From: Candidatus Sumerlaeia bacterium
GTDB taxonomy: Bacteria; Sumerlaeota; Sumerlaeia; SLMS01; JAHLLQ01
Assembly: GCA_019634695.1 (NCBI GenBank)
Contig: JAHCAW010000017.1
Location: 7,322 to 71,321 of the forward strand
Length of the DNA: 64,000 nucleotides
Reading direction: 5' to 3'
Under the pieces are notes generated by a model, which made no database searches, was not told the origin of the DNA, and was given only the letters and a program-made list of their open reading frames with translations. Of the stretch, positions 18,550-62,826 are shown in pieces. Within the stretch, counting starts at the first letter, position 1. Every line of letters starts with the position of its first letter. Both the position numbers and the translations under genes were made by a program.

Positions 18550-18565
18550 CGCGAAGGACGTCGCG

Positions 18566-24605: not shown

Positions 24606-24669
24606 AAGGAGAGGGTCCACCCGACCGGAGCACTCGCAGCCCGGTTGGCCGACCAACGGACGGAACCCA

Positions 24670-31382: not shown

Positions 31383-31389
31383 GACGGCG

Positions 31390-32219: not shown

Positions 32220-32235
32220 GGAACCCGCCCGGCCC

Positions 32236-39014: not shown

Positions 39015-39469
39015 GGCTCGCGCTCCCGATGCAGCAGCAGGGCCGCGACGAGATCGCCCGCTTCCGGCACGGGCACGTTCGCGGACAACTCCTCGGGTCG
39101 CCGCGGCGTTGCTTCCAGCCAGCAACGCACATCATGACCGGCCAGCGCATGAGCCAGCATCGGCGCCAGATCGGGCTCGAAGCAGACCACGTCGCGCACG
39201 CTGCGGCCGAAGACCGTTCGGCCGAGCACGACATCGACGCACGTCTCGATGCCGGGTTGCGGTCGTTCGACTTGGAAGAACGGATGCCGCGACGCCGGCG
39301 GATAGCCGATGCGAATGATTTCGGAGTCGGCGGTGTAGTCGGAGGGTACGCCGGCGGTGCCGTGCTCGATGCGAACGACGAGCAGCGGGCGGCCCACGGC
39401 GTCGGCGAGCAGGTCGCGCGCTTCGTCCCGCGCCCGCACGCCCTCCAGCAGCAGCACCCGCGTCCTCAT
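39011..39469 (-). CDS. hypothetical cytoplasmic protein, translationally coupled between two Wzy_C genes
   Basis: 152 aa. Its ATG overlaps the stop of the upstream Wzy_C-TPR gene (39466-39469) and its own stop overlaps the next ATG (39011-39014). Confidence 0.4.
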   Translation of the reverse strand: MRTRVLLLEGVRARDEARDLLADAVGRPLLVVRIEHGTAGVPSDYTADSEIIRIGYPPASRHPFFQVERPQPGIETCVDVVLGRTVFGRSVRDVVCFEPDLAPMLAHALAGHDVRCWLEATPRRPEELSANVPVPEAGDLVAALLLHREREP

Positions 39470-42400: not shown

Positions 42401-42723
42401 TTGAGTTCGAGCACCGGCAGGCCCTGCGACAGGAACGGCGCGAAGTCCTGAATCAGCAGGGCGAAAGGATTCGCGCCCGGCACGACCGGTGCCCCGTCGT
42501 TCAGGCGCATCATCCAGTCGCTCAGCCGCACGAGCCACGACTCGGGAAGACTGAGGTGGTAGGCCAGAACGGCCCCCAGGAAGGCGGCCATCAGGGCCAG
42601 CTCGACGAACTTGCCGAGCACCAGCGGCACCGTGAGCCGCGCGGCGGGCTCGTCCGGCACGGCGCGCCGGCGCCGGACCCGCGTGGCGCTCGACGACCCC
42701 GCCTTCTTTCGGTGTTTCGCCAT
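39466..42723 (-). CDS. O-antigen ligase-like (Wzy_C) membrane domain fused to a C-terminal TPR-repeat domain
   Basis: ATG at complement 42721-42723 (MAKHRKKAGSS...). It has ~12 TM helices with the GTGFGSFHFVYP...HAHNEYLQTLFETGLLG ligase signature. A ~550-aa helical TPR-like tail follows. Confidence 0.65.
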   Translation of the reverse strand: MAKHRKKAGSSSATRVRRRRAVPDEPAARLTVPLVLGKFVELALMAAFLGAVLAYHLSLPESWLVRLSDWMMRLNDGAPVVPGANPFALLIQDFAPFLSQGLPVLELKTTVWLLAALPLFAAHLLARLYEAFFRVPVLPPVATPSRRDWGRLVPLLCIVGYLVLALVSFSGLGWAPKPPVDAVPIAPEAEALEGARAGLFAWLHRMAMPQGAGTYHAWTAWVQVLGGLLFFVVAEDAIRTRRLVYKLLGLILGLGVVAAAVAVLVHAGLPGLSAIWVKWGPDNYRNDVAGFIGHNTALSSFMIAPLLIAWTLLMTHGDRMAKWVKALVWGAMAVMAVALIMAQSRAVIPILLVAFGALVALLARRAGLRPPLAIWVAIPLVLAVLLLSQFIKHPANPLYRKNLPLAVRIQHMAPEHLLTETRLRIPVCSWPVIRSHPLLGTGFGSFHFVYPQAQGEYYAANPESRIMPTPRKSFHAHNEYLQTLFETGLLGLALALAGVTAILLSGWKTVRRTFRQRHIALQMAILTSLVAMLVHCLLDFPLRVAPLSATLVLLLAMWSAGDRLWLIPVAKLDERASGTGEPPPPPARRKGPATNGSKLQTALAGAWLALVPLLAAAVVAISAMACEWFAANTLSLRAQSAMDAYLDLQAQGQSPDPQYIMQGHQNLKDARRLIPLHGEPYYYGARVLYIAASNLDRERSAALRAGDNSFAEDMRRRGLIAAGEALELLNRSLNEFRFHGSYYQRALIHYQTYRFSEGIERDAALHAAMADLEFAVLMNPGDPDMVRTLIEWKERFGARSEAEVDHLYRLLYHFHPLYFNETILKDALKQRALLDYRRSYERFRLMMRIDPANLTFREHAATTAALHGDLPTARLLAEKLLEIENPTGPAVQALIALREQRFDLATTALDHPLLALEGRPREYRNMLRRLLAAAEADRRQDPEAARREYDALLEQGTRQPESLIDAGIHLEAILGRPDVAAEFARARLAIADPPPWNAAWVLLAESLLAPHRADMGKLAARQDAARRANEPLPIADTPALREALLEALRLYDFVAQRTTDRQESLVVRNRANELATLLGPEAPPP

Positions 42724-42878
42724 GACTCCGCGGCCCGCAAGGCCCTCCGTCGGCGCACGATTCCAGCCCCCCGCGAGGCATGCCAAGCGAAAAGCCCCGC
42801 CCCACCAGAGCCGTTGACACCCGCCGCCGCGGACGACTTGCCTTGGGCAGCCGTTCGGGGTGCCCAGGAGGAAGGACC

Positions 42879-47086: not shown

Positions 47087-50000
47087 TCAGACGCCGAGGA
47101 CCTCGCGTCGCGCCTGCTTGAGCGCCTCGACGATGTCCTCGCCCTTCTCCCAGCGGTCTTCCTTCTCTTTGGCGAGGCACTTGGCGATGATGTTCCAGAG
47201 CGCATCCGGGCAGTTCTCCGGGCGCTGGGGCTGCTGGTGCATGTGCTGGTAGGCAAGGTCGCCCTGGATGAAGGGCGGCCGGCCGGCGACGAATTCGTAG
47301 AGCATGATGCCGAAGGAATACAGGTCTGCGCGGTTGTCGACGGCGATGCCCTGCACCTGCTCGGGCGACATGTACAGCGGCGTGCCGATGACGGCGCCCA
47401 CCATCGTGCCCTCGCCCGAGTTCATCGTCGAGTCCAGCATCTTGGCGATGCCGAAGTCGGTGACCTTCACCTGGTTGGTGCTGGTCAGCATGATGTTGGC
47501 GGGCTTGATGTCGCGGTGCACGATGCCGAGCCGATGCGCGTAGCCCAGCGCGTCGGCGATGTCGATCGCGTACAGGAACAGGTCCTCCATCGACAGCTTG
47601 CCTTCGGTCTTCACGCGCTTCTTGAGGTCCGAGCCGTCGACGTACTCCATCGAGATGTACTTGCGGCCCATTTCCTCGCCGATGTCGTGGATGCGCACGA
47701 TGTTGGGGTGCGACAGGCGGCGGGCGTTGCGGGCCTCGATCTTGAAGCGGCGCACCGCCTCCGGGTTGTTCGACATGGCGTCGGGCAGGATCTTGAGGGC
47801 GACGACCTCCTCGAGCTCCTTGTCGCGGGCGCGGTAGACGATGCCCATGGCGCCGCGGCCCAGCTCGTCCAGCAGTTCGTAGCGGCGCTTGGCGTCCTCG
47901 CTCATCTGCTGAACGATGCTCGTCTTCTCGAAGGCCATCGGGTCGCTCGTCGAGCCCGACAGCATCTCGAAGCGCGTCTTTACGTCCTTGTAGTCGATAT
48001 CGGCGGCGAAGAGCTGGCGATATACGGTCTTGGCGCCCACAAGGTCCTTCTTGCCCTCGTAGCGCTGCGCCAGATCGTACAGCAACTCCTTCGTTTCCTC
48101 GTCCACCACCAGCTTCTTGAACTCCTGCAGGGCCAGGTCGAGCATGCCCTTGTTCGTGAAGCACTTGCCGAGCATCTTGATCGACTCGGCTTCCCAGCGG
48201 TAATCCTGGGCCGTCTTCTGGAAGCAGCCGATCGCGCTGTCGTATTCCTGGATCATGTAGTACAGGCGGCCGAGGCGGAAGCGCACCTCCACTTCGTCCT
48301 TCTGCGTCAGGATGCGCTCGTAGACGTCGGCGAGCGCGCGGATCACCTCGGGGCTGTTGGGCTGCAGCTTGTAGGCCTTCTCGAGCGAGGCGCGCGCCCG
48401 CGCCATGTCCCCGGTCGCGACGAGGATCCGCGCCTGGCTCTGGAGCGCCGGCAGGTACTGGCCCTCCTTCGACAGGATCTTGTCGAGCGCGCCAAGCACG
48501 TTCTGCGCGTGGTTCGGGTTGTTGCTGTAGATCCAGTCGAGCTGTTCCATCGCCTCGCGCAGGTGCCCGTAGGCCACCAGCAGCTCGCACAGGAACCAGC
48601 GCACGCGCATTGCCTCGGGGTGCTGTTGCAGCATCTGGCCGATGTGGCGCAGCAGCGTCTCCTCCGCGCCCGGGCAGGACCGCATGACGTTCTGGTAGCT
48701 TTCGACGGCCTTGACCGTGTCGTTGCGTTCGAGGTGCACGCGCGCCAGCGCCAGGTGCAACTCCGGCACGTCGCTGCGCACCTGGAGTGCCCGCTGGTAC
48801 AGGCGCGCGCACTCGTCGTCCGCGCGTCCCTTGTGCGCGTAGGCCATCGCCAGGTGGAACATGGCCTCCTGATCGTTCGGGTTGCGCTGCAGGATTGCGG
48901 TATACTCGCGCACGGCCTCGTCGAGCTTGTTGTCGTAGAGGCTGGCGAGGGCGATCAGGCGCTTGAGCTCGCCGTCGTCGGGATGGTGGCGCAGCAAGGC
49001 CTGCGCCGTGCCGAGCGCGTCCTGATAGCGGTTCGCCTTGATGTAGGACCGGACGAGCATCGCACCGATGTTGCGGTCGGCGGGATCGTTGACCAGATGT
49101 GCCTCGTAGACGGGGATGGCTTCGCCGCCCTCGTCCTCCTTGCGCTCGAGCACAGTTGCCAGCGCCTTGACGAGCTGGGCGTTGTCGGGTTCGGCGCGCA
49201 GGGCCTCGCGATAGACGCGCTCGGCCTCGGGGCGATAGACCCCGGTTGCCATGTAGGAGCGCGCGAGCTGGCGCGAGTACTGGGCCTCGCCGAAGCCGAG
49301 CTGGAACAGCGTCTCGATGACGTCGATCGCCAGGTCGTGCGTGCCCGCCAGGCGTGCCGTCTCGGCCAGCGCCTTGAGCGTCACTGCATCGTTGGGATTC
49401 GCGCGCCGCGAGCGGTGATAGATGTCGACGGCGGGCTTCGTGAAGTTGCCTGCCCGGAAGTGAATCTCCGCCAGCGTGCGTAGCAACTCGGCGTCCTCGG
49501 GCTGCAGGGCCAAGGCGCGTTGGAAGGCCTCCTGCGCGGCTTGGTCCCCGCGGCCTTCCACCAGGTAGCACTGCGCCAGGAGCTGGATCGCGCGCTCGTT
49601 GGACGGCTCGACCTGAAGCGCCGACTTCGCCTCCTCGACCGCGCGTCCCACCTCGTTCTTCTGCATGTAGATCGTGCACAGGTGGCAGTAGGCCGGCACG
49701 TAGGAGCGGTTGTACTCGAGCACGCGATGGCAGAGCGACTCGACTTCGGCGTCGCCCTTCTTGGCGTCGATGCACGAATCCAGGTAGGCTTCGAGGAAGC
49801 GCGAGTCCTCCTGGCGTCCCTGGAACTGCTGGTGATAGACGGGCAGGGCCTTTGCCGTGCGGTTGTTCGTTTCGAGATACACGTCGCACAGGGCGGCATA
49901 GACGTGGTTGGCGGTCAGTCCGGCGCGCAGGGCGGCACGCAGGCGCTTGGCCGCCTCGTCGAAGTTGCCGGCCTCCTTGTGGCACATGCCGATGGCGTAC

Positions 50001-51994
50001 TCGAGCACCTGCGGCTCGGGGAAACTCTTGAGGGCGGCCTCGAAGACCGCGCGGGCTTGGGCGTCGCGCTTCTCGCCCTGCAGCAGCGCCCGTGCGTAGC
50101 AGTGCAGCAGGTTCGGGTTCTCCGGGTCCTTCTCGTGCGTGCGCCGGTAGATGTCGATCGTGCGCGCGTCGAAGTTCTTGTTCGACATGTAGACCATCGC
50201 CAACGTCGCGACGATCTTCTGGCTGCGGGGCTTGCGCGCCAGCAGGCGCTCGTACAGCACCTCGGCCTCGTCCATGCGACCCTTGGAAACCGATGTGCGC
50301 GCGCGGCGCTCCAGATGCGCCAGATACACGAAGCGGCCAACAACATACGTCAGCAGCAGCAGGACCGCCAGCACCCCGACGCCCGCAGCGATCAGCCAGA
50401 CCAGATTTCGCCGAATCCACATCTGGCGATACTGCGACTGGTACTGGACGTTGAAGGGGTCGTAGTCCCGTAGCGTGGCCGCCGCCGCCAGCGCCTCGTC
50501 CCAGTCCTTGGCCTCACGGGCCGTATTGAACCGGTCAGCGATCTTGGCCACTTCGGCCTCGAGCCGCGCCGCGCGCTGGCTCTCGCGTTGCAAGTAGACT
50601 AGGTCCACCCGCGCGTTGCGTCGCGGCGTCGCCGCCCGTGTCATCCACGGCGACAGCCATGGAGAAAGCGATGGCCACTCCGGCGAGCGATCGACTGAAA
50701 ACGTCCGTCCCGTGTCGATACCGAACAACATCCCCTGCAATGTCATCCCGATCAGGTGGTACTTGAAGGCGTTGCGTCCGCCCTCCTGCTCCGGCACGCC
50801 GATCACCGGCATCGTGTGGCCCACGAACTGGCCGATCGAGACGACCTGCGGCTCGTCCAGCGCCGGCACTCCTTGGAACCAACTGCTTGTCTCCAGCATC
50901 CGCACCTGCGTGCCCTGCGCGAACGCCAGCACCGGGAAGCCGCCATGGTGGTTCCACAGCACGGACAACTGCGAGTTGATCCCCGCGAACGATGTCCGGT
51001 CGCCGCGCAGCATCGCGCGCCTGGACACGTCGATCGCGACCAGACCGGCCGAACCCAGACCCTGGAAGATCAGCGCCTCGCCCGGGCCGCGATCCTTCGG
51101 CATCACCAGCACCGGATCGCCCGTCACCGCCCCGCCGCCACCTGTCGCGAACCGATTCAGCACGTCCAGCCGGTCCGTCGCCGGATTGTGGGTCCGGATT
51201 TCGATGTCGCCGTTGGCCAGCGTGAAGACGAGTTCGTCGCGCCCGTTGCCGGTAAGGTCCGCCAGCAACACCGTTGTGGCGATGCCGTGTTGCTCGGAGA
51301 TATTGTATTGGGTGGCACGGCCGGTGAACGACTCGATCAGCAGAAGCTTGCCGTCGCTGGTCGGCACCGCGATGTCGATCTGTCCGGAGATTCTCGGCGA
51401 GCCCAGCGAGAGCGGAGCGGCGGCCTTCGAGCCGGTGCGCACCGGCTCCCAGTAGGACTTCGCCTGCCGTGCGTCGTCCAGATAGACCGAGATCACCTGT
51501 CCGCCCTGATCGGCCAGCACCACGATCTCGGTGAAGGTGCCCGGGCTGCCCGGCAACGGCAGGTAGACCACCGTCGGCGATTCGACGAACGAGTTTGTCG
51601 AGACCTGTGCCTCGGCGATCGGAGTAAGGTTTCCGCCGTTGAGGAAGACGACACGGCCGTCCTCGGTGCCGAAGGCGATGTCGAGCGACGAGTCACGGGC
51701 GAAGTCGCCCACCACCGGGGCCGTCAGCGACCGGCGCGCCTCGTCCACCGCCTGCAGGATCATCTCACCCGACGTCGCGTCGAACACCGCGATGCGGCCC
51801 CCGACGTCCGTCGCGATGATCTCGGGCACCTCGTTGCGCACCAGATTGGCGGCGATAACCGCGTTGGGGGTATCCAGCGGCGTCTTGCGTCGCGTGAAGG
51901 TCTCACGCGGCTCGTCCGCCCATGCGCCGAACCCTCCCGCAACGAGCCCCGCCGCCAGCAGACTCGCGCCTCGCCGAACCTGTATGCCCATCAC
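47087..51994 (-). CDS. giant transmembrane Ser/Thr protein kinase (~1635 aa): signal peptide, extracellular FG-GAP/VCBS-like beta-propeller region, one TM, ~800 aa of TPR repeats and a C-terminal Hanks kinase domain
   Basis: N-terminal signal MMGIQVRRGASLLAAGLVAGGFGAWA. Repeats such as TDVGGRIAVFD and LADLTGNGRDELVF are FG-GAP-like. TM is LVWLIAAGVGVLAVLLLLTYVV. Many TPR-like helices follow. The kinase motifs at the C-terminus are GRGAMGIVYRA, VALK, HRDIKPANIML, DFGIAK and SPEQ. Confidence 0.8.
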   Translation of the reverse strand: MMGIQVRRGASLLAAGLVAGGFGAWADEPRETFTRRKTPLDTPNAVIAANLVRNEVPEIIATDVGGRIAVFDATSGEMILQAVDEARRSLTAPVVGDFARDSSLDIAFGTEDGRVVFLNGGNLTPIAEAQVSTNSFVESPTVVYLPLPGSPGTFTEIVVLADQGGQVISVYLDDARQAKSYWEPVRTGSKAAAPLSLGSPRISGQIDIAVPTSDGKLLLIESFTGRATQYNISEQHGIATTVLLADLTGNGRDELVFTLANGDIEIRTHNPATDRLDVLNRFATGGGGAVTGDPVLVMPKDRGPGEALIFQGLGSAGLVAIDVSRRAMLRGDRTSFAGINSQLSVLWNHHGGFPVLAFAQGTQVRMLETSSWFQGVPALDEPQVVSIGQFVGHTMPVIGVPEQEGGRNAFKYHLIGMTLQGMLFGIDTGRTFSVDRSPEWPSLSPWLSPWMTRAATPRRNARVDLVYLQRESQRAARLEAEVAKIADRFNTAREAKDWDEALAAAATLRDYDPFNVQYQSQYRQMWIRRNLVWLIAAGVGVLAVLLLLTYVVGRFVYLAHLERRARTSVSKGRMDEAEVLYERLLARKPRSQKIVATLAMVYMSNKNFDARTIDIYRRTHEKDPENPNLLHCYARALLQGEKRDAQARAVFEAALKSFPEPQVLEYAIGMCHKEAGNFDEAAKRLRAALRAGLTANHVYAALCDVYLETNNRTAKALPVYHQQFQGRQEDSRFLEAYLDSCIDAKKGDAEVESLCHRVLEYNRSYVPAYCHLCTIYMQKNEVGRAVEEAKSALQVEPSNERAIQLLAQCYLVEGRGDQAAQEAFQRALALQPEDAELLRTLAEIHFRAGNFTKPAVDIYHRSRRANPNDAVTLKALAETARLAGTHDLAIDVIETLFQLGFGEAQYSRQLARSYMATGVYRPEAERVYREALRAEPDNAQLVKALATVLERKEDEGGEAIPVYEAHLVNDPADRNIGAMLVRSYIKANRYQDALGTAQALLRHHPDDGELKRLIALASLYDNKLDEAVREYTAILQRNPNDQEAMFHLAMAYAHKGRADDECARLYQRALQVRSDVPELHLALARVHLERNDTVKAVESYQNVMRSCPGAEETLLRHIGQMLQQHPEAMRVRWFLCELLVAYGHLREAMEQLDWIYSNNPNHAQNVLGALDKILSKEGQYLPALQSQARILVATGDMARARASLEKAYKLQPNSPEVIRALADVYERILTQKDEVEVRFRLGRLYYMIQEYDSAIGCFQKTAQDYRWEAESIKMLGKCFTNKGMLDLALQEFKKLVVDEETKELLYDLAQRYEGKKDLVGAKTVYRQLFAADIDYKDVKTRFEMLSGSTSDPMAFEKTSIVQQMSEDAKRRYELLDELGRGAMGIVYRARDKELEEVVALKILPDAMSNNPEAVRRFKIEARNARRLSHPNIVRIHDIGEEMGRKYISMEYVDGSDLKKRVKTEGKLSMEDLFLYAIDIADALGYAHRLGIVHRDIKPANIMLTSTNQVKVTDFGIAKMLDSTMNSGEGTMVGAVIGTPLYMSPEQVQGIAVDNRADLYSFGIMLYEFVAGRPPFIQGDLAYQHMHQQPQRPENCPDALWNIIAKCLAKEKEDRWEKGEDIVEALKQARREVLGV

Positions 51995-52198
51995 CGCCTC
52001 AGTACCCCGTTTCGAAGGCTTCCCTGGCCCAAATGCCCCGCCGCGCCCGACGAATGACCACTTCTCGGGATTGGCCGACGGCCCCGGGGGGCCTCGCCGT
52101 GAAAGGCACGTCCAGCCTCGGGATTCCGGACCCTGTGCTCAACCGGATTAATGCCCTTCGGCACACCGGCAACCGCGTCCCTCCCGACGGCGCCGCCC

Positions 52199-53842
52199 CT
52201 ACAGGGAGCGACCGAACAGGCGCCACGTGCCCTGCGCTCCCAATCGGTCGTACCGAACCGCCCCCCACAGCACCCCGACCCGCCGCTCGTCCGGCCGCTC
52301 AGGCCCCGTCCAGTCCTCCCACGACACCAGTCCCAGATTCAACCGACGACGCTCGACGCCCAGCCAATTCCGCTCCCGCCGCCACATCGGCCCCGCCACC
52401 ACGACGGTCTCGTGCTTGCGACCCGCCGTCACCTCGCGCGACCACAGCGTCCACAATGGCGCCCAGTTGCGGTCCACCGACTCGGCCTCGGTGTAGGGGA
52501 ACAGATGCGGCGCGCTCTGGTAGCTGCTGCCGTCCTCGCGATGGATTTCCCGCCAGAGGGGGAAGATCATCCGGCGGTGGCTCTCGCGCCCGTCCTGCCA
52601 TTGGTTGGTCTGGCGCGCGTAGAAGGGCAGCACATAGCGGCGGTCGAACACCAGGTCCGGGTCCGTCGTGCGTCGCCAGACGTGGAAAGGCCACGGAGCC
52701 AGCAGGTGCTCGGTGCGTCCGTTGCTGCGTCGCACGTAGAAGGGGAAGACGCCGCCGCCCTCCATGGCCCGCCGACGCGGCTGGCCCTCGGCATCGGCGA
52801 AGGCCGGGTCCACCGGAATCCGGCTGGTCCACCGCCCGATGAACCACAGCACACGGTGCTCGCGCACCCCGGTGCGCAGGTTGTCGTCCTGATTGTACAG
52901 CGCCAGTGCCCAGCCCCGCGTCCGGCGACCCGCCATGTCCAGTCGCCCGTAGAACGGGAACACCATGTCGAAGCGCACTTCGGGCGAGCGCACCCGTCCC
53001 CACAGCGGGATGAAGGCGTTGACCTCGCGACGTTCGTCGCCTTGGCCCTCGACCCGGTAGTGACCCAGTGGCCACAGCCAGTACGCGCGCTTCAGCTCAC
53101 CCGGGCGCTCGACGTAGGCCACCAGCGGCCAGGCGCGGAAGCCCCACAAGCCCCCACCGCCGGAGATCCAGGACAGGAAAGGCCAGGGTACCGAAGTCTG
53201 CACCAGGCGCTCGTCACCCTCGCCGCGCGTCGAGCGCACGAACAACGGCCAGGCGGCGAACTCGATCCGGTCGCGATTCCAGAAGCCGCGGAAGTCGCCC
53301 CAGAAAGGCCACAGGGCGCGGATGTTCTGGGGTCGGCGCGGGAAGATGGGGAACGCCAGCTTCGCATCATTGGCCCGCCAGTAGAATGGAAACAGGATCA
53401 GATAGTCGCCGCCCGACTCGCGATGCCCCTGCCAGTAGAAGGGGAACAGGTAGCGCGTGGCCGTCTGCTGGCCCTCCTTGCGCCCCTGCGTCGAATACCA
53501 CAGCGCGAAGAGTTCCGACGTCGTGCGGTTCTCCCAGCCGGGCGTGCGCTCGCGGTGCGACCAGGTCCACAGAGGCCATAACACGTCGACCTGACGCTCG
53601 CCCGCTTCGGGACGTTCGACACGCGAGTAGAACGGATGGATGGCCAGCAGCGATTCGTCGGGCGCCTGGCGCCAGCGCACGAAGGGCCACAGCACCCAGC
53701 CCTGGCGATTCGCGTCGTCGTCCTCGCGTGTCGGCGTGGCCACCTCGGCGCCCGGCGCAAGCGCGCAAGCCAGCAGGACAAGCAGCACCAGCGCCGCCTG
53801 TGCACCCATGCGCCCCCGCAAGCCGGTCGTCGTCTCAGACAT
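52199..53842 (-). CDS. secreted tandem-repeat protein with ~23 aromatic 'WPF/PFY(W)xR' repeats (unknown family)
   Basis: 547 aa with a signal peptide (GAQAALVLLVLLACALAPGA). Recurring ~20-25-aa units are centred on VLWPFVRW, IHPFYSRV, VLWPLWTW, LFPFYWQG, LFPFYWRA, LWPFWGDF, AWPLFVRS, VPWPFLSW, VFPFYGRL, VFPFYVRR, APWPFHVW, VLPFYARQ, IFPLWREI. The start overlaps the upstream HK stop by 8 nt. Confidence 0.6.
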   Translation of the reverse strand: MSETTTGLRGRMGAQAALVLLVLLACALAPGAEVATPTREDDDANRQGWVLWPFVRWRQAPDESLLAIHPFYSRVERPEAGERQVDVLWPLWTWSHRERTPGWENRTTSELFALWYSTQGRKEGQQTATRYLFPFYWQGHRESGGDYLILFPFYWRANDAKLAFPIFPRRPQNIRALWPFWGDFRGFWNRDRIEFAAWPLFVRSTRGEGDERLVQTSVPWPFLSWISGGGGLWGFRAWPLVAYVERPGELKRAYWLWPLGHYRVEGQGDERREVNAFIPLWGRVRSPEVRFDMVFPFYGRLDMAGRRTRGWALALYNQDDNLRTGVREHRVLWFIGRWTSRIPVDPAFADAEGQPRRRAMEGGGVFPFYVRRSNGRTEHLLAPWPFHVWRRTTDPDLVFDRRYVLPFYARQTNQWQDGRESHRRMIFPLWREIHREDGSSYQSAPHLFPYTEAESVDRNWAPLWTLWSREVTAGRKHETVVVAGPMWRRERNWLGVERRRLNLGLVSWEDWTGPERPDERRVGVLWGAVRYDRLGAQGTWRLFGRSL

Positions 53843-55592
53843 CCTTGTTGACGGTCGCGTTCGTGTCCTGGCCGAGGACCAGCTCGTCCTCGTCCGACAG
53901 CGCGGGCAGCTTGATGATGAATGTGGTCCCGACGTTCTCTTCCGACTCGACCGTCAGGGCGCCGCGCATGTCCTCGATCACCTTGCGGCACATCGGCAGG
54001 CCGAGTCCGGTGCCGGACGAGCCCTTGGTGGTGAAGAAAGGGAGGAAGATCTTGTCGAGCTTCTCGCGCGGGATGCCCGCGCCGTTATCGGCCACCTTGA
54101 TGATGAGGCTGCGCTGCGCGTCATCGGCCACGCTCGTGACGATCTCGATGTGGCCCTGGCCGTGTGGGATCGCCTCGATGGCGTTGACGATCAGGTTGGC
54201 GAGCGTGCGTTGCAGGCCGATCTCGTCGGTCCAGCGCTCCCCGATGCCCTCCTCAAGATCGAGCTCGAGCGTGATGCCCTTGCGTACCAGCTCGCTCTCG
54301 ATCTCCTCGGCGGTCGAGCAGATCAGCGCGTTGATGTCGATCATCCGGATGCGCGGGCGCTTCTGGCTCGAGTACTCGAGCATGTCCTTGACCAGCTTGC
54401 TGATCTTCTCGATGCCGCGGCTGACAACGCCCCAGGACTCTTTAGCGGTCTCGACCTTGTTGGCCGCGAAGGCGCGCTCGAGCAACTCGCTGCCGCCGTT
54501 CATCAGCAGCAGGATGTTCTTGATGTTGTGACTGATGCCGGCCACCGTCTCGCCGACTGCGGCCAGGCGCTCGCGGTGCGTCGCCTCGCGCCGCATCCGG
54601 ATGTTCTCGAGCGCCAGCGACAGGTCGCCCGCGATCATCGTCACGAACTCCAGGTCGTCCTTGTCCAGCGTCTTGCCGATCGACTGCGTGTCCAGATGAA
54701 CGACGCCCATCACGCGCTCGCCCTGAATCATCGGCACGCAGATAACCGACTGCATCTTGTTCATGATGATCGATTCGCTGGCGCCGAATCGGTCGTCCGA
54801 GCCGGTGTCGGTGCTCAGCACCGCACACCGGTCGCGCACCACCTGGTCCAGGATCGTCTTCGACAGCGAGATGCGCGTGCCCGGAATAATCTCGTCCTGC
54901 GTGCGCACGGCCGCGATTTCCAGTTCCGTCGAGGCCGGCGAGAACCGCGTCAGGATCACGCCACGATCCGCCGCCACCGCGTCGAACAGGATGTCGAGCA
55001 CGCGCTCGATAATCGTCTGCTCCCGGTCGCCCTCGGCCTCGCGCAGCAGTTCCGACAGCCGGTACATCGCCGTCAGACGGTTGTGCGACTTCACCAACTC
55101 GCTCGGATCGAGCGCCCGAGCCTCCTTCACCGAGATCGGTGCCGTGAAGAACGAGGACCGTTCCCGGATTGCCTCGATCTGGTCGCTGCCGATCACCGAC
55201 TGCGTCTGCGGCCGCGGCGCATCCGTGTCGTCCTTGAACTCCACGATGCTCATTCCGCCGACCTCGAAGTTCGAGGAGGAGCGCCCCGCCGTCGCCTCGT
55301 TGCGGAACGTGAACTCGATCGCCCCGAACGTCACCTCGTCGCTGTGGTGCAGCGTCATCTGCGTGACGCGCTCGCCGTTGACGTACGTCCCGTTCGAGGA
55401 ATTCAAGTCCTGCAGGATGAAGAAATTGCCGCGCTTGTCGATGCGCGCATGGAACCGCGACACCGAGTCCGTCCCCAGCACCACGCTGTTCGACGGGTGC
55501 CGGCCGACCGTCGTCGTGTCCGTCAGCTCGTACTCCGGCTTCAGCCCGGGCGTCGGCGTGCGCAGCGTCAGCTTCGGCTTCTGGTCGGCCAT
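53835..55592 (-). CDS. sensor histidine kinase with N-terminal FHA domain and central GAF domain (FHA-GAF-HisKA-HATPase_c), no TM
   Basis: ATG at complement 55590-55592 (MADQKPKLTL...). FHA core is TVGRHPSNSVVLGTDSVSRFHARI...LNSSNGTYVNGERV. H-box is AGISHNIKNILLL. The ATPase G-boxes are VADNGAGIP and GSSGTGLGLPMC. Confidence 0.75.
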   Translation of the reverse strand: MADQKPKLTLRTPTPGLKPEYELTDTTTVGRHPSNSVVLGTDSVSRFHARIDKRGNFFILQDLNSSNGTYVNGERVTQMTLHHSDEVTFGAIEFTFRNEATAGRSSSNFEVGGMSIVEFKDDTDAPRPQTQSVIGSDQIEAIRERSSFFTAPISVKEARALDPSELVKSHNRLTAMYRLSELLREAEGDREQTIIERVLDILFDAVAADRGVILTRFSPASTELEIAAVRTQDEIIPGTRISLSKTILDQVVRDRCAVLSTDTGSDDRFGASESIIMNKMQSVICVPMIQGERVMGVVHLDTQSIGKTLDKDDLEFVTMIAGDLSLALENIRMRREATHRERLAAVGETVAGISHNIKNILLLMNGGSELLERAFAANKVETAKESWGVVSRGIEKISKLVKDMLEYSSQKRPRIRMIDINALICSTAEEIESELVRKGITLELDLEEGIGERWTDEIGLQRTLANLIVNAIEAIPHGQGHIEIVTSVADDAQRSLIIKVADNGAGIPREKLDKIFLPFFTTKGSSGTGLGLPMCRKVIEDMRGALTVESEENVGTTFIIKLPALSDEDELVLGQDTNATVNKDV

Positions 55593-55650
55593 CGATTCCT
55601 CGCGACAAGGCGGCGATTGCGGCGCCCCGGACGGACAACCGGGACGCGCC

Positions 55651-56028
55651 CTAGTCCAGCGCAAACTCCGGCTCGGGCCGGAACCGCTGAGCCACCAGGT
55701 CGAAGTGCACCCGGCGCGTGTCCCGGACTGGAAACGGCATCATCTCCATCAACAGATCCGGCCCCATCCACAGATACGGTGGCGCCTTGAAGCGCTCCCG
55801 CCGCACGGCCGGCTCGTGCCCCGCAAGATCAGCCTTGAAATCATAGTACCAATACCACGTGAACGGCATCTCCACCGGCGTGCGACCCAGATGAATGTCG
55901 TTCATGTGGATATCCGCACCCGGTGGGTCCGACGTCACCACCACCTTGCTGCGCACGCAGCCCGTCGCCCCCAACGCCATCAGCGCCGTCGCCATCACCG
56001 CGCAACACCAGCGTTTCCAGACCGCCAT
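55651..56028 (-). CDS. PEGA-domain lipoprotein
   Basis: Lipobox MATALMALGATGC. This is followed by VVVTSDPPGADIHMNDIHLGRTPVEMPF, matching the PEGA pattern (PxGAxVxxDG...G.TP). Confidence 0.5.
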   Translation of the reverse strand: MAVWKRWCCAVMATALMALGATGCVRSKVVVTSDPPGADIHMNDIHLGRTPVEMPFTWYWYYDFKADLAGHEPAVRRERFKAPPYLWMGPDLLMEMMPFPVRDTRRVHFDLVAQRFRPEPEFALD

Positions 56029-56125: not shown

Positions 56126-57067
56126 TCAGGCTGGCGCCTCCGATATCCGGCCCAGTCGTGGCGGCTCGATCCAGTCATAGCTCGACGGGTTCCGCTCCCA
56201 CGCCTTGCGATGCAGGTCGCACTGGTGCCAGAACGCCCACGCGCCAGTCACCGGGTGGCGCGGCGCCACCGCCTCGCCCAGCGCCTCGCTCGCCGCCTGC
56301 GACAACGCCGGCAGCAGCGAGGAATCGAACGCATCACCCAAACCTCGATGCACCAGGTTCGCGATCAGGATACAGGTGTCCGTAATCCCGGAACGCTCGC
56401 CCACGCCGTTCACCGACGTCGACACGAAGTCCGCTCCGCCGTCGAGAGCCGCCAGCGCATTCGCCGTCGCCAGACCCCGGTCATTGTGCAGATGCGCCTC
56501 GAGCGGCACGCCGGGGAACCGCTGCCGCAGCTCGGCGAAGAGTTCCCGCGCCTGATCGGGCTCGAGCACCCCCAGCGTGTCAGGGCAGCACAGACGGTCG
56601 GCTCCCGCCTCGATGGCGACCTCGCAGGCGCGCCACAGGTCGGCCGGCTCGGTGCGAGTCGCATCCTCGACACTGTACCGAACAGTCAAGCCCGCCTGCT
56701 TGGCGGCCATGATTGATTCCCGGGCCATCGCCAGCAGGTCCTCCCGGCCGCAGCCCGGCGTTCGCGCCTCGATGGTCTGCCGGTTCACGCCCAGGAAGAT
56801 CCCGACCCCGTCGGCTCCCGAGGCGATCGCTGCCCGAATGTCGGCCTCCCGGGCCCGGGCATGCGTCATCACCTTCGCCTGACGGCGCGCTGCGAGCACG
56901 GCCGCCAGAATCTCGTCCCAATCCGGCCGAGCCCCGGCGTGCGTGCACTCGATATGTCGGATGCCGACGGCCTCCAGCAGCGGCACCAACGCCGCCGCAG
57001 CCTCCGGCCGCACCGCCACCCGGCACGCCTGCAAACCCTCCCGCAATGTGGCGTCAATCAGGTGCAA
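56126..57067 (-). CDS. HMGL-like (DRE-TIM metallolyase / pyruvate carboxyltransferase) enzyme, homocitrate/citramalate-synthase-like catalytic domain only
   Basis: TTG start with GGGGAGG SD. The N-terminal IDATLREGLQ corresponds to the DxTLRDGxQ motif. The EAHLHNDRGLATANALAALDGGADFVSTSVNGVGERSGI region carries the second HxH metal site. At 313 aa it lacks the C-terminal regulatory domain of IPMS. Confidence 0.6.
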   Translation of the reverse strand: MHLIDATLREGLQACRVAVRPEAAAALVPLLEAVGIRHIECTHAGARPDWDEILAAVLAARRQAKVMTHARAREADIRAAIASGADGVGIFLGVNRQTIEARTPGCGREDLLAMARESIMAAKQAGLTVRYSVEDATRTEPADLWRACEVAIEAGADRLCCPDTLGVLEPDQARELFAELRQRFPGVPLEAHLHNDRGLATANALAALDGGADFVSTSVNGVGERSGITDTCILIANLVHRGLGDAFDSSLLPALSQAASEALGEAVAPRHPVTGAWAFWHQCDLHRKAWERNPSSYDWIEPPRLGRISEAPA

Positions 57068-57158
57068 TTCGCCTCCCCGACCTGCTTCGGCCTCCAGCTC
57101 TCATGCTTTCATCATTCCACCTTGTCTCCATGCCCGGGCCACAGGCAGGTGAGACGCA

Positions 57159-59822
57159 ATGCCATTTGCTGGGACAACCTCGTTGCGCGCCTTGCTTCCC
57201 AACCTGATCGAGTCGATTGCCGCCTCTGCCGAGTGTTCCGTGCCGTATACGACGATCTGGGACCGCTTCCTGACGGTGGCGCGTCATGCCCCGAGTCGCG
57301 TGGCCGTTTCTTGGGAAGAGGGAGAGATCACATGGGGGGCGCTGGCATCCCGGGCTACTGGCGTCGCGACCTGCCTGGCCGATGTCGGCATCGGGCATGG
57401 CGACGTGGTCGCGTTCCTGCTTCCGCCCGACGCCGATCACTTTGCCTGCTTCCTCGGCATTCTTCAGCGCGGCGCGATCCTGCTCTCCCTGGACGCGGCC
57501 AGCCCGCCCGATCGCCTGCGGCGCGTGCTCGAGCACAGTGGCGCCGCGGCCGTCTTCGTCAACGCCGCAACCCGCTCCCGGATTGAGTCCTTGGGCCTGC
57601 CGGTTCTGCGCCAGATCGCTGTCGAATCCGTGGTGCCCTGCCCGGTCGAGAACCTGCCGCCCAGCCCCGCCGCCTCCGACAGCGTCGCCAGCTTGCTCTA
57701 CACCTCCGGCTCGACGGGCGAGCCCAAGGGCGTCATGCAGCTCCACCGCAACCACCTGCGCATCTCGCACCAGTACCGGACGATCCACGCCATCACGCCC
57801 GAGGACCGCGTGGCGCTCGCGCTGCCTCCCTCGGGTGCCAGCGCCCGCACGGACATCCACGCGGCTCTGATGTGCGGCGGCATCCTGGCCTGCCGCCATC
57901 TCGCCCGCCACGGGGCCGCCGGCTTGGGCGAGTGGGTGGACGATCAGGCAATCACCATCCTCCATTTGGTGCCGACGCTCTACCGCGCCATGGTCCGTGC
58001 GCTGCCGCCCGACAGGGTGCTTTCCAGTGTACGCGTCGTGCGCCTGGGCGGCGAGGCCCTGCGCCAGCAGGACCTCGAGACCTTCGCCCGCCACTTCCCG
58101 CCCGACGCCGTCCTGTCTTGGTCGCTCAGCACCACCGAGGCTTCCTTCGCCACCATGATGCACTGGCGCGCGGGCGATCCGCCACCCGGCGATCCCCTGC
58201 CCTCCGGCTTTCCGATGCCCGACCCCGGAATCATCATCGTCGACGAGCAGGGCACTGAGCTGCCCGCCGGCACCACCGGACGCATCGTTCAGCGCGGCAC
58301 CGTCCTCTCGCCCGGCTACTGGCACGCCCCGGAAACGACGGCCAAGTTCTTCAGTGACGACCCGGTCGGTGGCGGAGTCCGGCGCTTCTTCACCGGTGAC
58401 CTTGGACACATCGACGCCCAGGGCCGGCTCGTTCACGAGGGGCGCCTCGACTATCACGTCAAGATCGCGGGCAATCGCATCGACCCGGCCGAGGTCGAGG
58501 AAGCGATCTGTCGCCATCCCGACGTCGATGAGGGCGTCGTCATCCCGCGCACCCCGGCCACCGGCGACTCCTGGCTGCACGCCTTTGTCACCGTCCGCGG
58601 GACGGTGACCACTGCCCAGTTGAAAGCCCATGTCGCCGGCCTGCTGCCCGCCCACCTCGTGCCGGCCCGCATCGAGTTCCTCGACCGCATGCCGCTGACC
58701 GCCACCGGCAAGGTGGACCGCGCCGGCCTGCGCAAACGCTCCGAGGCACCGGAAGCCGCTGCACCCGAACGCCCGGCCGACCACTTCGAACTCGGCCTGC
58801 GCGACGTCTGGCGGGAGATTTTGCGCCAGCCCGAACTTGGCATCGACGCAGGCTTCTTCGAGCACGGTGGCTCCTCGCTCGACGCCGTCACGGCCCTCGA
58901 GGAGGTGCGTCGCCGCTTCGGCGCCGAGATCGAACCGCAAGCCCTGCTTGAGAGCCCCACCCCGCGCGAGCTGGCCGCCCACCTGCGCGGCGCCGCCCCC
59001 CGACGCTGGCGTCATCTCATGGGCGTCTCGACCACCGGCGACGGACTCCCCTTCTACTGCGTGCCTCCCAACGGGCGGACGGCCTACTCCTTCGAGCCGC
59101 TCGGTCGCCTCATGGCCGGCGAGCGGCCGCTCTATACCTTCCATCCGCTCGGTGCCCTGCCGGGCGAGACCCCGCACCGGACCATCGCCGAGATGGCCGC
59201 CGCCTACGTGCGCGAGCTGCTGGACCATCGCCCCGAGGGGCCCTTCCTGCTGGGCGGGCGCTGCGGCGGTGGCATGGTCGCCTGGGAGATGGCCCGGCAG
59301 CTCACCGCCGCGGGCCACGAGGTTCCGGTGGTCGTTCTGCTCGAGACCAAGCGGGCGCCCTATCCGGCCGACCGCCTGCTGCGCCTGCGCTACGCGACGG
59401 CCGTCGTGGCCGGCCTTCCGTTCGCCCCGCGCGCCGGCGAGGCCAGCCGATGGTTTGTGCACCGGATGCTGGCCCGTCTGCGGGCGCCCGGCCACCCGGC
59501 CGCCCGCGAACCCGAGAACGACGATGCGCCGTCCGTCTTTCCCAGCGAGCGCGAGCGCGCCATGCTGCAAGCCCACAACCGCGCCTGTTTGCACTATCGC
59601 GTCGCCCCGGCGGCGACCCGTCTGGCGCTCGTGCTCGCCGAGGCCGGCAATGCCTTCATCGACCACCAGCGCGCCGTGCTCTGGCGCCTGCTTGCCCGAC
59701 GCGGCACGGAGTTCCACGTCCTGCCGGGCGACCACCTCCAAACGCTGGCCGGCGACAATCTGGTCCGCGCGGCCGGTGTGGTCTTAGACATCTGCCGCCG
59801 CGCCGAGCAGTCGGCAGGGTAG
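57159..59822 (+). CDS. stand-alone single-module NRPS-like protein: adenylation - peptidyl carrier - thioesterase (A-PCP-TE). The TE nucleophile position is occupied by Cys.
   Basis: A-domain cores are LYTSGSTGEPKGV (A3), FTGDLGHIDAQGRL (A7), GRLDYHVKIAGNRIDPAEVEEAI (A8) and PLTATGKVDR (A10). PCP motif is FFEHGGSSLDAV. The TE region has GGRCGGGMVAWE (a GxCxG in place of GxSxG) and a downstream PGDH. AGGTGAG SD is 5 nt upstream of the ATG. Confidence 0.8.
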   Translation: MPFAGTTSLRALLPNLIESIAASAECSVPYTTIWDRFLTVARHAPSRVAVSWEEGEITWGALASRATGVATCLADVGIGHGDVVAFLLPPDADHFACFLGILQRGAILLSLDAASPPDRLRRVLEHSGAAAVFVNAATRSRIESLGLPVLRQIAVESVVPCPVENLPPSPAASDSVASLLYTSGSTGEPKGVMQLHRNHLRISHQYRTIHAITPEDRVALALPPSGASARTDIHAALMCGGILACRHLARHGAAGLGEWVDDQAITILHLVPTLYRAMVRALPPDRVLSSVRVVRLGGEALRQQDLETFARHFPPDAVLSWSLSTTEASFATMMHWRAGDPPPGDPLPSGFPMPDPGIIIVDEQGTELPAGTTGRIVQRGTVLSPGYWHAPETTAKFFSDDPVGGGVRRFFTGDLGHIDAQGRLVHEGRLDYHVKIAGNRIDPAEVEEAICRHPDVDEGVVIPRTPATGDSWLHAFVTVRGTVTTAQLKAHVAGLLPAHLVPARIEFLDRMPLTATGKVDRAGLRKRSEAPEAAAPERPADHFELGLRDVWREILRQPELGIDAGFFEHGGSSLDAVTALEEVRRRFGAEIEPQALLESPTPRELAAHLRGAAPRRWRHLMGVSTTGDGLPFYCVPPNGRTAYSFEPLGRLMAGERPLYTFHPLGALPGETPHRTIAEMAAAYVRELLDHRPEGPFLLGGRCGGGMVAWEMARQLTAAGHEVPVVVLLETKRAPYPADRLLRLRYATAVVAGLPFAPRAGEASRWFVHRMLARLRAPGHPAAREPENDDAPSVFPSERERAMLQAHNRACLHYRVAPAATRLALVLAEAGNAFIDHQRAVLWRLLARRGTEFHVLPGDHLQTLAGDNLVRAAGVVLDICRRAEQSAG

Positions 59823-60108
59823 GGGGAGCGGGCAGCCGGGACCGGCTGAACTTCTGACAAGAATCACCCGAATCTTGGGGATAAGTGCCCTGTCGGAAGT
59901 CGGCTCAGCGGTTTCGGTGCGTTCTCGGGCCCGCAGGCCGGGGTTTCCCTTGACGGGGGACCGCCCATTTCCTTGCTTTTGACGCCCGACAACGCGGGGG
60001 CCTTCAGGGCCAGGCGTCTGCTGGCGACCCCGCAAGGGGCGCGGCGACTTTCTCGGGATCGAGCCGAGGTTCGAGTCGGGCCGGACCTGCGGAACCAACG
60101 GAGTGTGT

Positions 60109-62826
60109 ATGCGGATTTCCGACTTGGCGCAAATCCTTCAACTGACCTCGAAAGAGATCATTCAGGAAGTGGAGAATTTGCGCGATGCCCTGACCAACCA
60201 GGGCTTCAAGATTGCCAAGCGACTGACGGCCTCGAGCAGTCTGGACGACGACGCGGTGCGCCTGCTGATGGCGGAGGTCGATATCCGCCGCCGGGACGCG
60301 CAGAAGAAGGTCGACGAGGAGGCCGCGGCCGCGCGCCGCGCCGAAGAGGAGGCGCGACGCCGCGAGGACGGCGAGCGGCGCGCCCGCGAGGAGGCCGAGC
60401 GTCAGCGCCAGGCCGAAGAGGCGCGCCGGAAGGCCGACGAGGCATTGGCGCTCGAGCAGCGCCGCCGCGAGGCCCAGGCGCGCGTCGCGCCGCCGGTCCC
60501 ACCGCCGTCGGTGGCTCCGCCCCCGCCGCCCAGCCTGCGGACGGCCACTCCCGCTGCCGTCGCACCACCGGCTGCGCCTCCGGTGCTGCCGGTTCGGCCG
60601 CCCGCACCGCCGCCGCCCGCACCCACGGCCGCGGCGGATTCCGCGCCCGTTGCCGAACGCCCCGCCTCCACTCGTCCCGCCGGGCGTCCTGCTGCCCGCG
60701 ACGATCAGGGTCCGCGCCGCAAGGACGTGCGTCCCGAGAAGCGCACCTCCGCGCCTGACGTCGGCGGCTTCGTCGACTCCGGCTTTGGCACCACCGTCGA
60801 GAAGGAAGGCGTCAAGGCGCGCCGGCGTCCCGACGTGCCGGACCGCGGCAAGAAGCCCGCGACCACCGACGAGGAAGGGCCGCGCAAGCGTCGCCTCAAG
60901 CCCGGCGAGGGCGGCCGCAAGATCTTCCGCCCCACGCAGGTCTACGAGGGCGAGGCGGTCAAGTCCCGTCGGCCCTCCACGCGCCCCGGCGCCGCCCGCA
61001 AGGGCCGCGGCGGCATGGTCGAGCGTCAGGAGGAACGGCCCAAGGTCTTCCAGCTCACCGGCGACTTCACCGTCGGCCAGTTCGCCGAACGCACCGGCGT
61101 TCAGTCCGCCGAGATCATCGGCAAGCTGCTCGGCATGGGCAAGCTGCTGACCATCAACCAGATTCTCGAACCCGATCTCGCCGAGCTGATCGCGATGGAA
61201 CTCGGCATCGAAATCCGCATCGAGCGCGAGAGCGACGAGTCCGACATCGCCGACTGGATCAACCTCGAGGACGATCCCGCCGACCTGCGGCCCCGCCCGC
61301 CCGTCGTCACCGTCATGGGCCACGTCGACCATGGCAAGACCACGCTGCTCGACACCATCCGCGACGCCAACGTCGCCGACTCCGAGCACGGCGGCATCAC
61401 GCAGGCCATCGGTGCCTACTTCGTCAAGACCGACAAGGGCGACATCGTCTTCCTCGACACGCCGGGCCACGCCGCCTTCACGGCGATGCGCGCCCGCGGC
61501 GCCAACGTCACCGACCTCGTCGTGCTCGTCGTTGCCGCCAATGACGGCGTCAAGCCGCAGACCGTCGAGGCCATCAACCACGCCAAGGCCGCCGAGGTGC
61601 CCATCGTCGTCGCCATCAACAAGATCGACGTCGAGGGCGCCAACATCACCCGCGTCAAGAACGAGCTGATGAGCTACGAGCTGGTCAGCGAGGATCTGGG
61701 CGGCGAGACGATCATGGTCGAAGTCTCGGCCAAGAGCGGCAAGAACGTGCAGGCCCTGCTCGAGATGATCGCCCTGCAGGCCGAGGTACTCGAACTCAAG
61801 GCGAATCCGAACCGCCCGGCCGTCGGCACGATCATCGAATCCAAGATCGATCCGAACCGCGGCGCCGTCGCCACCGTGCTCGTCACCGAGGGCACGCTGC
61901 ATACCGGCGACATCTTCGTCTGCGGCACCGAATCGGGCCGCATCCGCGCCATGCGCAACGACAAGGGCGAAGCACTCGAGCAGGCCGGCCCTGCCACCCC
62001 CGTCGAGATTCTCGGCCTCTCCGGCAGCCCCGCCGCCGGCGAAGCCTTCGTCGTCCTCGAGGACGAGGCCGAGGCACGCGAGATCGCCGAACGCCGCGTC
62101 AATCGTCGCAAGACACGCGCCGCCAAGGCCGTCTCCCACGTCTCGCTCGACACCATCGGCGACCACCTCGCCAAGGGTGCCATCAAGGACCTCAACCTCA
62201 TCGTCAAGGCAGACGTTCAGGGCTCCGTCGAGGCCATCGTCGCCTCGCTCGAGAAGATCGAGTCCGACCGCATCAACCTGCGCATCCTGCACAGCGGCGT
62301 CGGCGCGATCACCGAAGGCGACGTCCACCTGGCCGACGCCTCCGACGCCATCATCGTCGGCTTCAAGGTCCGCCCCGATCCCTACACGCGCGATCTCGCG
62401 CAGGACCTCGGCGTCGAAATCCGCACCTATTCGATCATCTACGAGCTGCTCGAGGAGATCGAGTCCGCCATGCTCGGCATGCTCGAGCCCGTCTTCGAGC
62501 AGGTCGCCATGAGCACCATCGAGGTGCGCGAGGTCTTCCGCATCGGCAAGCTGGGCAACATCGCGGGCTGCTTCGTCTCCGAGGGCACCGTGGCGCGCGA
62601 CCATCGCGCCCGGCTGCTGCGCGGCGGCACGGTCGTCTGGGAGGGCAAGGTCGCCTCGCTGCGCCGTCACAAGGACGAGGCACGCGAGGTCGTTGCAGGC
62701 CTCGAATGCGGCATCGGCCTCGAGAACTTCCACGACATCAAGACCGGCGACGTCATCGAGACCTACGTGCTCAAGCAACTGGCCGCCAGCCTCGTCTCCG
62801 CCCCCTCGGGCGCCGGCAGCGCCTGA
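60109..62826 (+). CDS. infB: translation initiation factor IF-2
   Basis: G-domain motifs are [17 protein letters not shown] and NKID. There is a low-complexity Ala/Glu/Arg/Pro-rich N-terminal region. GGAG is 7 nt upstream of the ATG at 60109. The track ORF begins 6 nt earlier at GTG. Confidence 0.9.

Follow-up and report, generated by a model that had tools for sequence, protein, structure and literature searches.

A divergent pair of homocitrate-synthase-like and adenylation-carrier-thioesterase genes from Candidatus Sumerlaeia as a candidate unit for handling a small acidic organic acid

What does a single-module, nonribosomal peptide synthetase (NRPS)-like enzyme activate when it is encoded back to back with a Claisen-condensing enzyme, and do the two belong to one pathway? 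This question is raised by two divergent genes of Candidatus Sumerlaeia bacterium (assembly GCA_019634695.1, contig JAHCAW010000017.1, positions 7,322-71,321 of the forward strand). We refer to the whole stretch of 64,000 nucleotides (nt) that was analysed, which has a GC content of about 67% over its 64 kb, as the window, and give all coordinates in its numbering. We find that the two genes form a conserved minimal unit, kept in three lineages with otherwise differing flanks, and that the compound activated and released by the locus is most likely a small acidic organic acid, not an amino acid. The genes, the region between them and the domains of the larger product, an adenylation-carrier-thioesterase (A-T-TE) protein, are the following:

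56126-57067, minus strand: HMGL-like gene (TTG start) for a homocitrate-synthase-like DRE-TIM Claisen-condensing enzyme of 313 amino acids (aa).
57068-57158, no strand: divergent intergenic region, 91 nt between the HMGL-like and the A-T-TE gene.
57159-59822, plus strand: A-T-TE gene (ATG start) for an 887-aa NRPS-like protein with adenylation, carrier and thioesterase domains.
57276-58712, plus strand: adenylation domain, residues 40-518 (Pfam).
58797-58985, plus strand: carrier (PP-binding) domain (Pfam, 3.3e-14), with its phosphopantetheine site at Ser573 (codon 58875-58877).
59055-59768, plus strand: type I thioesterase domain, with the triad Cys702 (59262-59264), Glu729 (59343-59345) and His859 (59733-59735).

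Both open reading frames have coding-type GC contents at their third codon positions (0.84-0.86). The 887-aa protein is 100% identical to the entry 'AMP-binding protein [Candidatus Sumerlaeia bacterium]', whose annotation is 8 residues shorter. Pfam finds in it the domains AMP-binding (residues 40-388, 1.6e-61), AMP-binding_C (445-518), PP-binding (547-609) and Thioesterase (633-870, 3.5e-18) but no condensation domain, an order which corresponds to the non-reducing NRPS-like A-T-TE architecture. In the 313-aa protein, HMGL-like covers residues 2-256 (8.5e-57). The original prediction for this DNA had described a single NRPS-like module of adenylation domain, peptidyl carrier protein (PCP) and thioesterase, divergent across 91 nt from an HMGL-like enzyme, and both the reading frames and the Pfam matches bear this out.

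The best NCBIfam model for the 887-aa protein is amino acid adenylation (TIGR01733), whose score of 264.7 bits lies below the cut-off of 317.4, and the solved relatives of the adenylation domain are NRPS adenylation domains. We obtained the specificity code from a GrsA-anchored alignment, in which the GrsA reference segment is identical to residues 184-526 of 1amu and reproduces the published code DAWTIAAICK. At GrsA positions 235, 236, 239, 278, 299, 301, 322, 330, 331 and 517, the window protein has the code ASTHRGSFAK (A227, S228, T231, H269, R295, G297, S322, F330, A331, K518), and the pattern A[SA]THRGS..K is common to six clade members. The register of motif A4 was the same in two independent alignments to LgrA, with FD opposite GA. 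The earlier statement that all adenylation core motifs are present is therefore too strong: motif A4 reads SGAS, not FDxS, and motif A5 reads LSTTE, not YGPTE, whereas Lys517 of motif A10 is kept, as Lys518.

In amino-acid-activating adenylation domains, Asp235 anchors the alpha-amino group of the substrate. Here it is replaced by Ala227, and all six clade members have alanine at this position, so the substrate is very probably not an alpha-amino acid; we reject an amino-acid substrate on this ground. The aminoacylated product considered in the original prediction is unsupported for the same reason, Asp235 being replaced while Lys518 is kept. Of these two pocket anchors, whose loss had been named as the mark of an acyl-CoA ligase-like protein, one is thus missing and one is present; the 887-aa protein is carrier-dependent and not an acyl-CoA ligase. 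In established NRPS codes, position 278 is lysine or histidine in the codes for aspartate and glutamate, where it recognises the side-chain carboxylate. Judged by these codes, His278 together with Arg299 (Arg295 of the protein, invariant in the clade) suggests a substrate with a further carboxylate, and the adenylation domain should load an anionic, non-amino carboxylic acid.

The carrier serine of the motif GGSSL, which had been noticed from the start, is present and conforms to GGxS: Ser573 is invariant in six orthologues, together with G570, G571 and L574. The same holds for the cysteine at the thioesterase nucleophile. Cys702, in GRCGG, aligns with the nucleophile serine or cysteine of homologous thioesterases, and among solved ones it stands opposite the serine of NocB (GGWSFGG) and the cysteine of AB3403 (GGWCFGG), the latter being the best PDB sequence match of the domain (5e-14). 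In an AlphaFold model of residues 611-887, built from 33 sequences and with a mean predicted local distance difference test score (pLDDT) of 91.2, Cys702 is located at the nucleophile elbow, in the turn between strand 87-91 and helix 93-107 (model numbering), Glu729 comes directly after strand 114-118 and His859 after strand 240-245. The structural check named in the original prediction, whether GRCGG falls on the nucleophile elbow, thus turns out in its favour. Glu729, which is aspartate in the orthologues, occupies the usual acid site after strand beta6, 27 residues past the nucleophile. The lid of the domain is rich in arginine, with invariant Arg residues and with 18 basic against 10 acidic residues in 115. 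Foldseek searches matched type I thioesterases of polyketide synthases and NRPSs, namely GbnD6, an epimerising and cyclising thioesterase, Pks13, Vlm2 and AB3403 (E 1e-15 to 1e-12). The thioesterase is of the AB3403 type. AB3403, from Acinetobacter baumannii (PDB 4ZXH), shares the cysteine nucleophile as well as the position of the triad acid, after strand beta6. As a C-A-PCP-TE protein, itself uncharacterised in product, it differs by its condensation domain, which is absent here.

The original prediction had also held that a cysteine nucleophile is rare and had implied chemistry in the manner of ObiF, and neither claim survives comparison with related thioesterases. Among full-length homologues, 38 of 68 thioesterases have cysteine as nucleophile, and among the 150 nearest thioesterase representatives from an exhaustive search of 1.84 billion proteins, cysteine (80) outnumbers serine (69), with aspartate at the usual acid site in most of the cysteine forms. 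In ObiF1 and SulM, by contrast, the triad aspartate is in the loop after strand beta7, both enzymes group with type II thioesterases, and ObiF1 has a glycine at the usual acid site after beta6 (PMC11298585, PMC6668435). The window enzyme resembles them in its cysteine nucleophile and in the small acyl substrate with a beta-heteroatom that would be expected for it; unlike them, it keeps Glu/Asp in the usual position, and its matches are type I thioesterases. Neither the thioesterase sequence matches nor the 50 Foldseek matches listed include ObiF, and SulM does not occur there by name. From the triad geometry and the nearest neighbours among these matches, we reject a thioesterase of the ObiF/SulM type. 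Unusual off-loading would be compatible with Cys702 but does not follow from it, which corrects a common shortcut: cysteine nucleophiles are frequent in this thioesterase neighbourhood and do not by themselves predict beta-lactone chemistry.

For the 313-aa enzyme, the best NCBIfam models are homocitrate synthase LysS, an isopropylmalate-synthase subfamily and NifV homocitrate synthase, all of them below their cut-offs (TIGR02146, 235.8 bits against 413.55; TIGR02660, 211.7 against 462.9), and the closest solved relatives are the homocitrate synthases 6ktq (1.2e-52), 3ivs and 2ztj. The residues R9, E10, H69, R130, S132, E134, T164, H192, H194 and H281 are conserved; the enzyme retains the Arg-Glu pair within TLREG, together with the His-x-His metal site and the catalytic Glu and His, roles which we assign on the assumption that they correspond to those in the homocitrate-synthase structures of Schizosaccharomyces pombe and Thermus thermophilus. 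From the same structures, we take its His/Arg/Ser trio to bind the distal carboxylate of 2-oxoglutarate. The named homocitrate-synthase relatives have this trio in the same form, H-R-S; in most of the remaining relatives it is H-R-T. Like the homocitrate synthases (LysS, NifV, AksA; 6KTQ, 3IVS, 2ZTJ), the enzyme thus has the DRE-TIM barrel with its metal ligands, catalytic residues and 2-oxoglutarate-pocket residues. It differs from them in that its 313 residues comprise just the catalytic barrel and the start of subdomain I, ending soon past the catalytic His and without the regulatory domain, in that it stays below all NCBIfam equivalog cut-offs, in that the GEQ motif reads GLQ, and in that its partner gene is NRPS-like rather than a lysine or nif gene. 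It is most likely an acetyl-CoA:2-oxo-dicarboxylate condensase.

HMGL-like relatives in Streptomyces and in a deltaproteobacterium also adjoin AMP-binding genes. These relatives (45-48% identity; L092:8757-15849 and L094:6016-15088) lie within other candidate clusters. The Streptomyces cluster contains AMP-binding, TauD, PhyH, HMGL-like, Asn-synthase-like and methyltransferase genes; in the deltaproteobacterium, 3 nt separate a glutamine-synthetase-like gene from the HMGL-like gene that follows it, and the latter converges on a gene for a 1590-aa protein with an AMP-binding domain and a faint acetyltransferase match.

A relative with 90% identity (L169/L170) keeps the entire neighbourhood of the window pair. 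In two further loci, L001 (56% and 62% protein identity) and L002 (57% and 60%), the divergent pair is kept and all other neighbours differ. The original prediction of a minimal locus holds for the pair itself, but the operon with PEGA and FHA-kinase genes that it had attached to the 313-aa enzyme is not kept at this distance: in tblastn searches, none of the PEGA protein, the FHA-kinase, a 547-aa protein, a Ser/Thr kinase and translation initiation factor IF-2 adjoins the pair in L001 or L002, which rejects them as parts of the system, and a 31% match to the kinase domain in L001 lies about 5 kb beyond the A-T-TE gene. Since only the divergent pair stays at 56-62% identity, PEGA, FHA-kinase and IF-2 are placed outside the unit. 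The PEGA match is in any case marginal (22.4 bits, cut-off 20.8), and co-orientation with the PEGA and FHA-kinase genes is confined to the window and its 90%-identical relative.

Within the divergent intergenic region, a CTTGTCNCCA element (in 57085-57125), which lies some 35 nt upstream of the start codon of the A-T-TE gene, is kept in the alignment of the window with L169, L001 and L002. As it persists in lineages whose intergenic regions are otherwise unalignable, it may be a regulatory site. The motif AGGTGA in the same region reads as a ribosome-binding site, and a scan of the locus for sigma-70 promoters and terminators yielded nothing relevant.

More distant A-T-TE homologues, at 33-39% identity, whose code is AATHRG and whose thioesterase is a Cys form, belong to what we call the sister cassette, in which a LeuB-like Iso_dh gene and an isochorismatase-aldehyde dehydrogenase fusion accompany the A-T-TE gene. 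The aldehyde-dehydrogenase part of the fusion has 2,5-dioxovalerate (2-oxoglutarate semialdehyde) dehydrogenase as its best NCBIfam match. The cassette (L003:1-9989, L004:9402-16656, L086:4826-10634, L113, L130, L131) ranges over Sumerlaeota, Verrucomicrobia and at least three metagenome loci, and its flanks in Verrucomicrobia carry integrase and IS91-type transposase genes. The metagenome loci came from a scan of metagenome contigs with a sub-alignment of motifs A4-A5; among the matches listed, identity in the segment was at most 45% and L001 was absent. A scan of genome contigs with the full-length alignment gave just two distant Sumerlaeota homologues (37-39% identity), followed by generic adenylation domains. 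The contexts of the A-T-TE homologues P0014 and P0028 have no shared partner, their neighbours being unrelated. The pair and the sister cassette, taken by their contexts, both point to 2-oxo and 2-hydroxy di- or tricarboxylic acids.

Our preferred reading, which we put forward as possible and tentative, is that the two divergent genes form one small unit for an anionic 2-hydroxy or 2-oxo polycarboxylic acid, in which the homocitrate-like product of the condensing partner is tethered to the A-T-TE protein and released as a lactone or ester. It is supported by the retention of the pair while the flanks change, by the A[SA]THRGS code, the residues of the partner, the sister cassettes, the intact triad and the basic lid. 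The domain architecture, the catalytic residues, the non-amino-acid code and the conserved pairing are observed here; the substrate, the order of steps and the release chemistry we infer as follows. The 313-aa enzyme would be a minimal Claisen condensase of the homocitrate-synthase type, which would join acetyl-CoA to a 2-oxo-dicarboxylate, most likely 2-oxoglutarate, and so yield a homocitrate-like 2-substituted malate. The adenylation domain, holding a carboxylate by His and Arg at positions 278 and 299, would adenylate one carboxyl and load it onto the phosphopantetheine arm at Ser573. The acyl group would then move from the carrier to Cys702 as a thioester, and release would follow either by attack of the substrate's own hydroxyl, to give a lactone, or through transfer onto an external alcohol or amine; a beta-lactone would result if the acetate-derived carboxyl had been the one activated. 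A precedent for such a substrate is polymalate synthesis, where an NRPS-type A-T enzyme activates malate, a hydroxy-dicarboxylic acid. Precedents for the pairing are the antiSMASH class 'betalactone' and the cystargolide and belactosin pathways, which are compared with the locus below.

Several points weigh against this proposal. Homocitrate is a tertiary alcohol, beta-lactonisation in the cystargolide pathway is blocked by a free carboxylate at C1, and the thioesterase is without the triad geometry of the two known beta-lactone/beta-lactam Cys-thioesterases. The pairing is seen in just three lineages, probably of one phylum, for which inherited adjacency is possible, and similar short homocitrate-synthase-like genes (P0160 and P0139, 44-47% identity) do not stand beside adenylating enzymes. 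The genes scanned to both sides (43.2-63.8 kb) include no methyltransferase, and neither a transporter nor a phosphopantetheinyl transferase is among the scanned nearby genes. Finally, the neighbours in the sister cassette would make 2-oxo acids, which fit the substrate of the condensing partner and not its product.

This last point leads to the main alternative, in which the acid taken up by the adenylation domain is a 2-oxo-dicarboxylic acid (for example 2-oxoglutarate or 2-oxoadipate) that is also the substrate of the partner, and the thioesterase condenses or cyclises the tethered units; in another form, the homocitrate-synthase-like enzyme would add acetyl-CoA to the tethered keto acid, with subsequent release of a gamma-lactone. 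We regard these two forms, taken together, as somewhat doubtful. Ala235 would suit keto acids and hydroxy acids alike, the pocket of the partner is of the 2-oxoglutarate type, and the LeuB-like and 2,5-dioxovalerate-dehydrogenase-like enzymes of the sister cassette would yield 2-oxo acids directly upstream of the A-T-TE gene. Against it, the His/Arg/Ser trio of the partner implies a free distal carboxylate rather than a thioester, and the code ASTHRGSFAK differs at almost every position from the code of aromatic alpha-keto acids as we know it, VAEFSGGACK. To our knowledge, no DRE-TIM condensase acts on a carrier-bound keto acid, which also speaks against this alternative. A bacterial example of the non-reducing NRPS-like A-T-TE synthetases is RalA. 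In fungi, such synthetases make terphenylquinones and furanones, e.g. AcyN (PMC9047271). All characterised enzymes of this kind use alpha-keto acids, not amino acids (PMC9047271), which favours the 2-oxo-acid alternative. The window protein has the same architecture as the fungal synthetases, likewise without a condensation domain, and is likewise predicted to use a substrate other than an amino acid. However, the fungal enzymes load and dimerise aromatic alpha-keto acids, whereas the His/Arg pocket here suggests an aliphatic polycarboxylate, and the cysteine nucleophile and the homocitrate-synthase-like partner set the window protein apart from them as well.

It is unlikely, in our view, that the two genes are mere neighbours without a common pathway, the 313-aa enzyme being a housekeeping homocitrate, citramalate or Re-citrate synthase and the A-T-TE protein activating another acid, for instance to acylate a component of the envelope. 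The setting of the locus amid housekeeping genes (IF-2, alternative complex III, a cytochrome oxidase operon) would agree with this, as would the short homocitrate-synthase-like genes that stand alone elsewhere, the unrelated neighbours of the more distant A-T-TE homologues and the restriction of the pair to three lineages. Yet at 56-62% protein identity, where all other neighbours have changed, the pair and its upstream motif persist, the Streptomyces and deltaproteobacterial relatives of the small enzyme adjoin AMP-binding genes too, and the anionic adenylation pocket fits the chemistry of the partner.

Returning to the preferred reading of a single unit for an acidic substrate, a more specific version of it is that the pair makes a malate-type beta-lactone, or a different ester that is strained and activated, by a thiotemplated route. 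Here, the homocitrate-like acid would be tethered via its acetate-derived carboxyl and cyclised on the Cys-thioesterase by virtue of the greater reactivity of a thioester acyl-enzyme. We consider this version quite unlikely.

Adjacent genes with HMGL-like and AMP-binding Pfam domains, as found here, correspond to the antiSMASH class 'betalactone', which is defined by an HMGL-like and an AMP-ligase gene (PMC8719888) and is modelled on the cystargolide/belactosin pathway. In that pathway, the alkylmalate comes from an isopropylmalate-synthase homologue, its C1 is masked through methyl esterification by CysG, the adenylate-forming CysF closes the lactone, and the ester is finally taken off by CysE; fusions of CysF and CysE (CysFE) exist, which combine an adenylating enzyme with an alpha/beta-hydrolase. 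The window pair resembles this system in that an HMGL-like condensase of the LeuA family stands beside an adenylate-forming enzyme which would activate a carboxyl of a substituted malate. The condensase is, however, of the homocitrate-synthase type, the NRPS-type domain is fused to a carrier and a Cys-thioesterase whereas CysF stands alone and lactonises from the acyl-adenylate, and no CysG-like methyltransferase or peptide-ligase genes are found near the pair. The 60 PDB relatives listed for the adenylation domain do not include CysF (8RA0).

A canonical amino-acid-activating NRPS termination module that would release an aminoacyl ester or beta-lactone in the manner of ObiF is highly improbable, for although the top NCBIfam model, the solved relatives of the adenylation domain and the cysteine nucleophile might suggest one, the model score falls short of its cut-off, Asp235 is alanine throughout the clade, there is no condensation domain, the triad is that of AB3403 rather than of ObiF or SulM, and neither of these two enzymes is found by name among the thioesterase sequence matches or the 50 Foldseek matches listed.

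The remainder of the window is of a housekeeping character. The features on either side of the pair are:

9978-17087, minus strand: 2369-aa protein with right-handed beta-helix repeats as its sole Pfam match.
17728-25896, plus strand: alternative complex III set (multihaem cytochrome c, molybdopterin/Fe-S subunit, NrfD, ActD, cytochrome c).
27684-33132, plus strand: cytochrome c oxidase operon, next to the former (COX1, haem O synthase, CtaG, COX3).
37554-42786, minus strand: two adjacent large membrane proteins of 523 and 1106 aa, each with a Wzy_C O-antigen-ligase domain, and between them a 152-aa reading frame without a Pfam match.
47087-55664, minus strand: signalling block of a 1635-aa Ser/Thr kinase with long tetratricopeptide repeat arrays, a 547-aa protein without a Pfam match and an FHA and GAF histidine kinase.
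60103-62826, plus strand: IF-2, downstream of the A-T-TE gene.

The signalling block is kept only in the 90%-identical relative, apart from the kinase-domain match in L001. The alternative complex III and cytochrome c oxidase genes indicate an aerobic respiratory chain in this Sumerlaeota genome, and the 2369-aa beta-helix protein is probably a giant surface or secreted protein. IF-2 follows the A-T-TE gene in the 90%-identical relative as well. In Binatia (L090:6411-10514; L091:4044-8147), the gene for peptide chain release factor 3 (RF3) ends 1 nt before the start of an A-T-TE homologue; that genes of translational GTPases adjoin A-T-TE homologues in two unrelated lineages may be due to chance.

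The divergent pair is a real, conserved and uncharacterised NRPS-like unit, whose chemistry probably differs from that of the characterised examples, while its class would already be flagged by standard genome mining. If the beta-lactone route were true, it would avoid the cryptic methylation of the cystargolide and belactosin pathways and would use a type of thioesterase other than those of ObiF and SulM; the broad A-T-TE clade with a Cys-thioesterase and with His278 and Arg299 would then represent a so far unrecognised family of synthetases that make lactones or esters of small acids. Should the pairing be functional, it would provide a compact two-gene unit from an uncultured phylum, which converts a hydroxy-polycarboxylate of the central-metabolism type to an activated or cyclised product and should be easily expressed. 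It would also give the first functional handle on a large bacterial A-T-TE clade with an anionic pocket and a Cys thioesterase, the sister cassette included.

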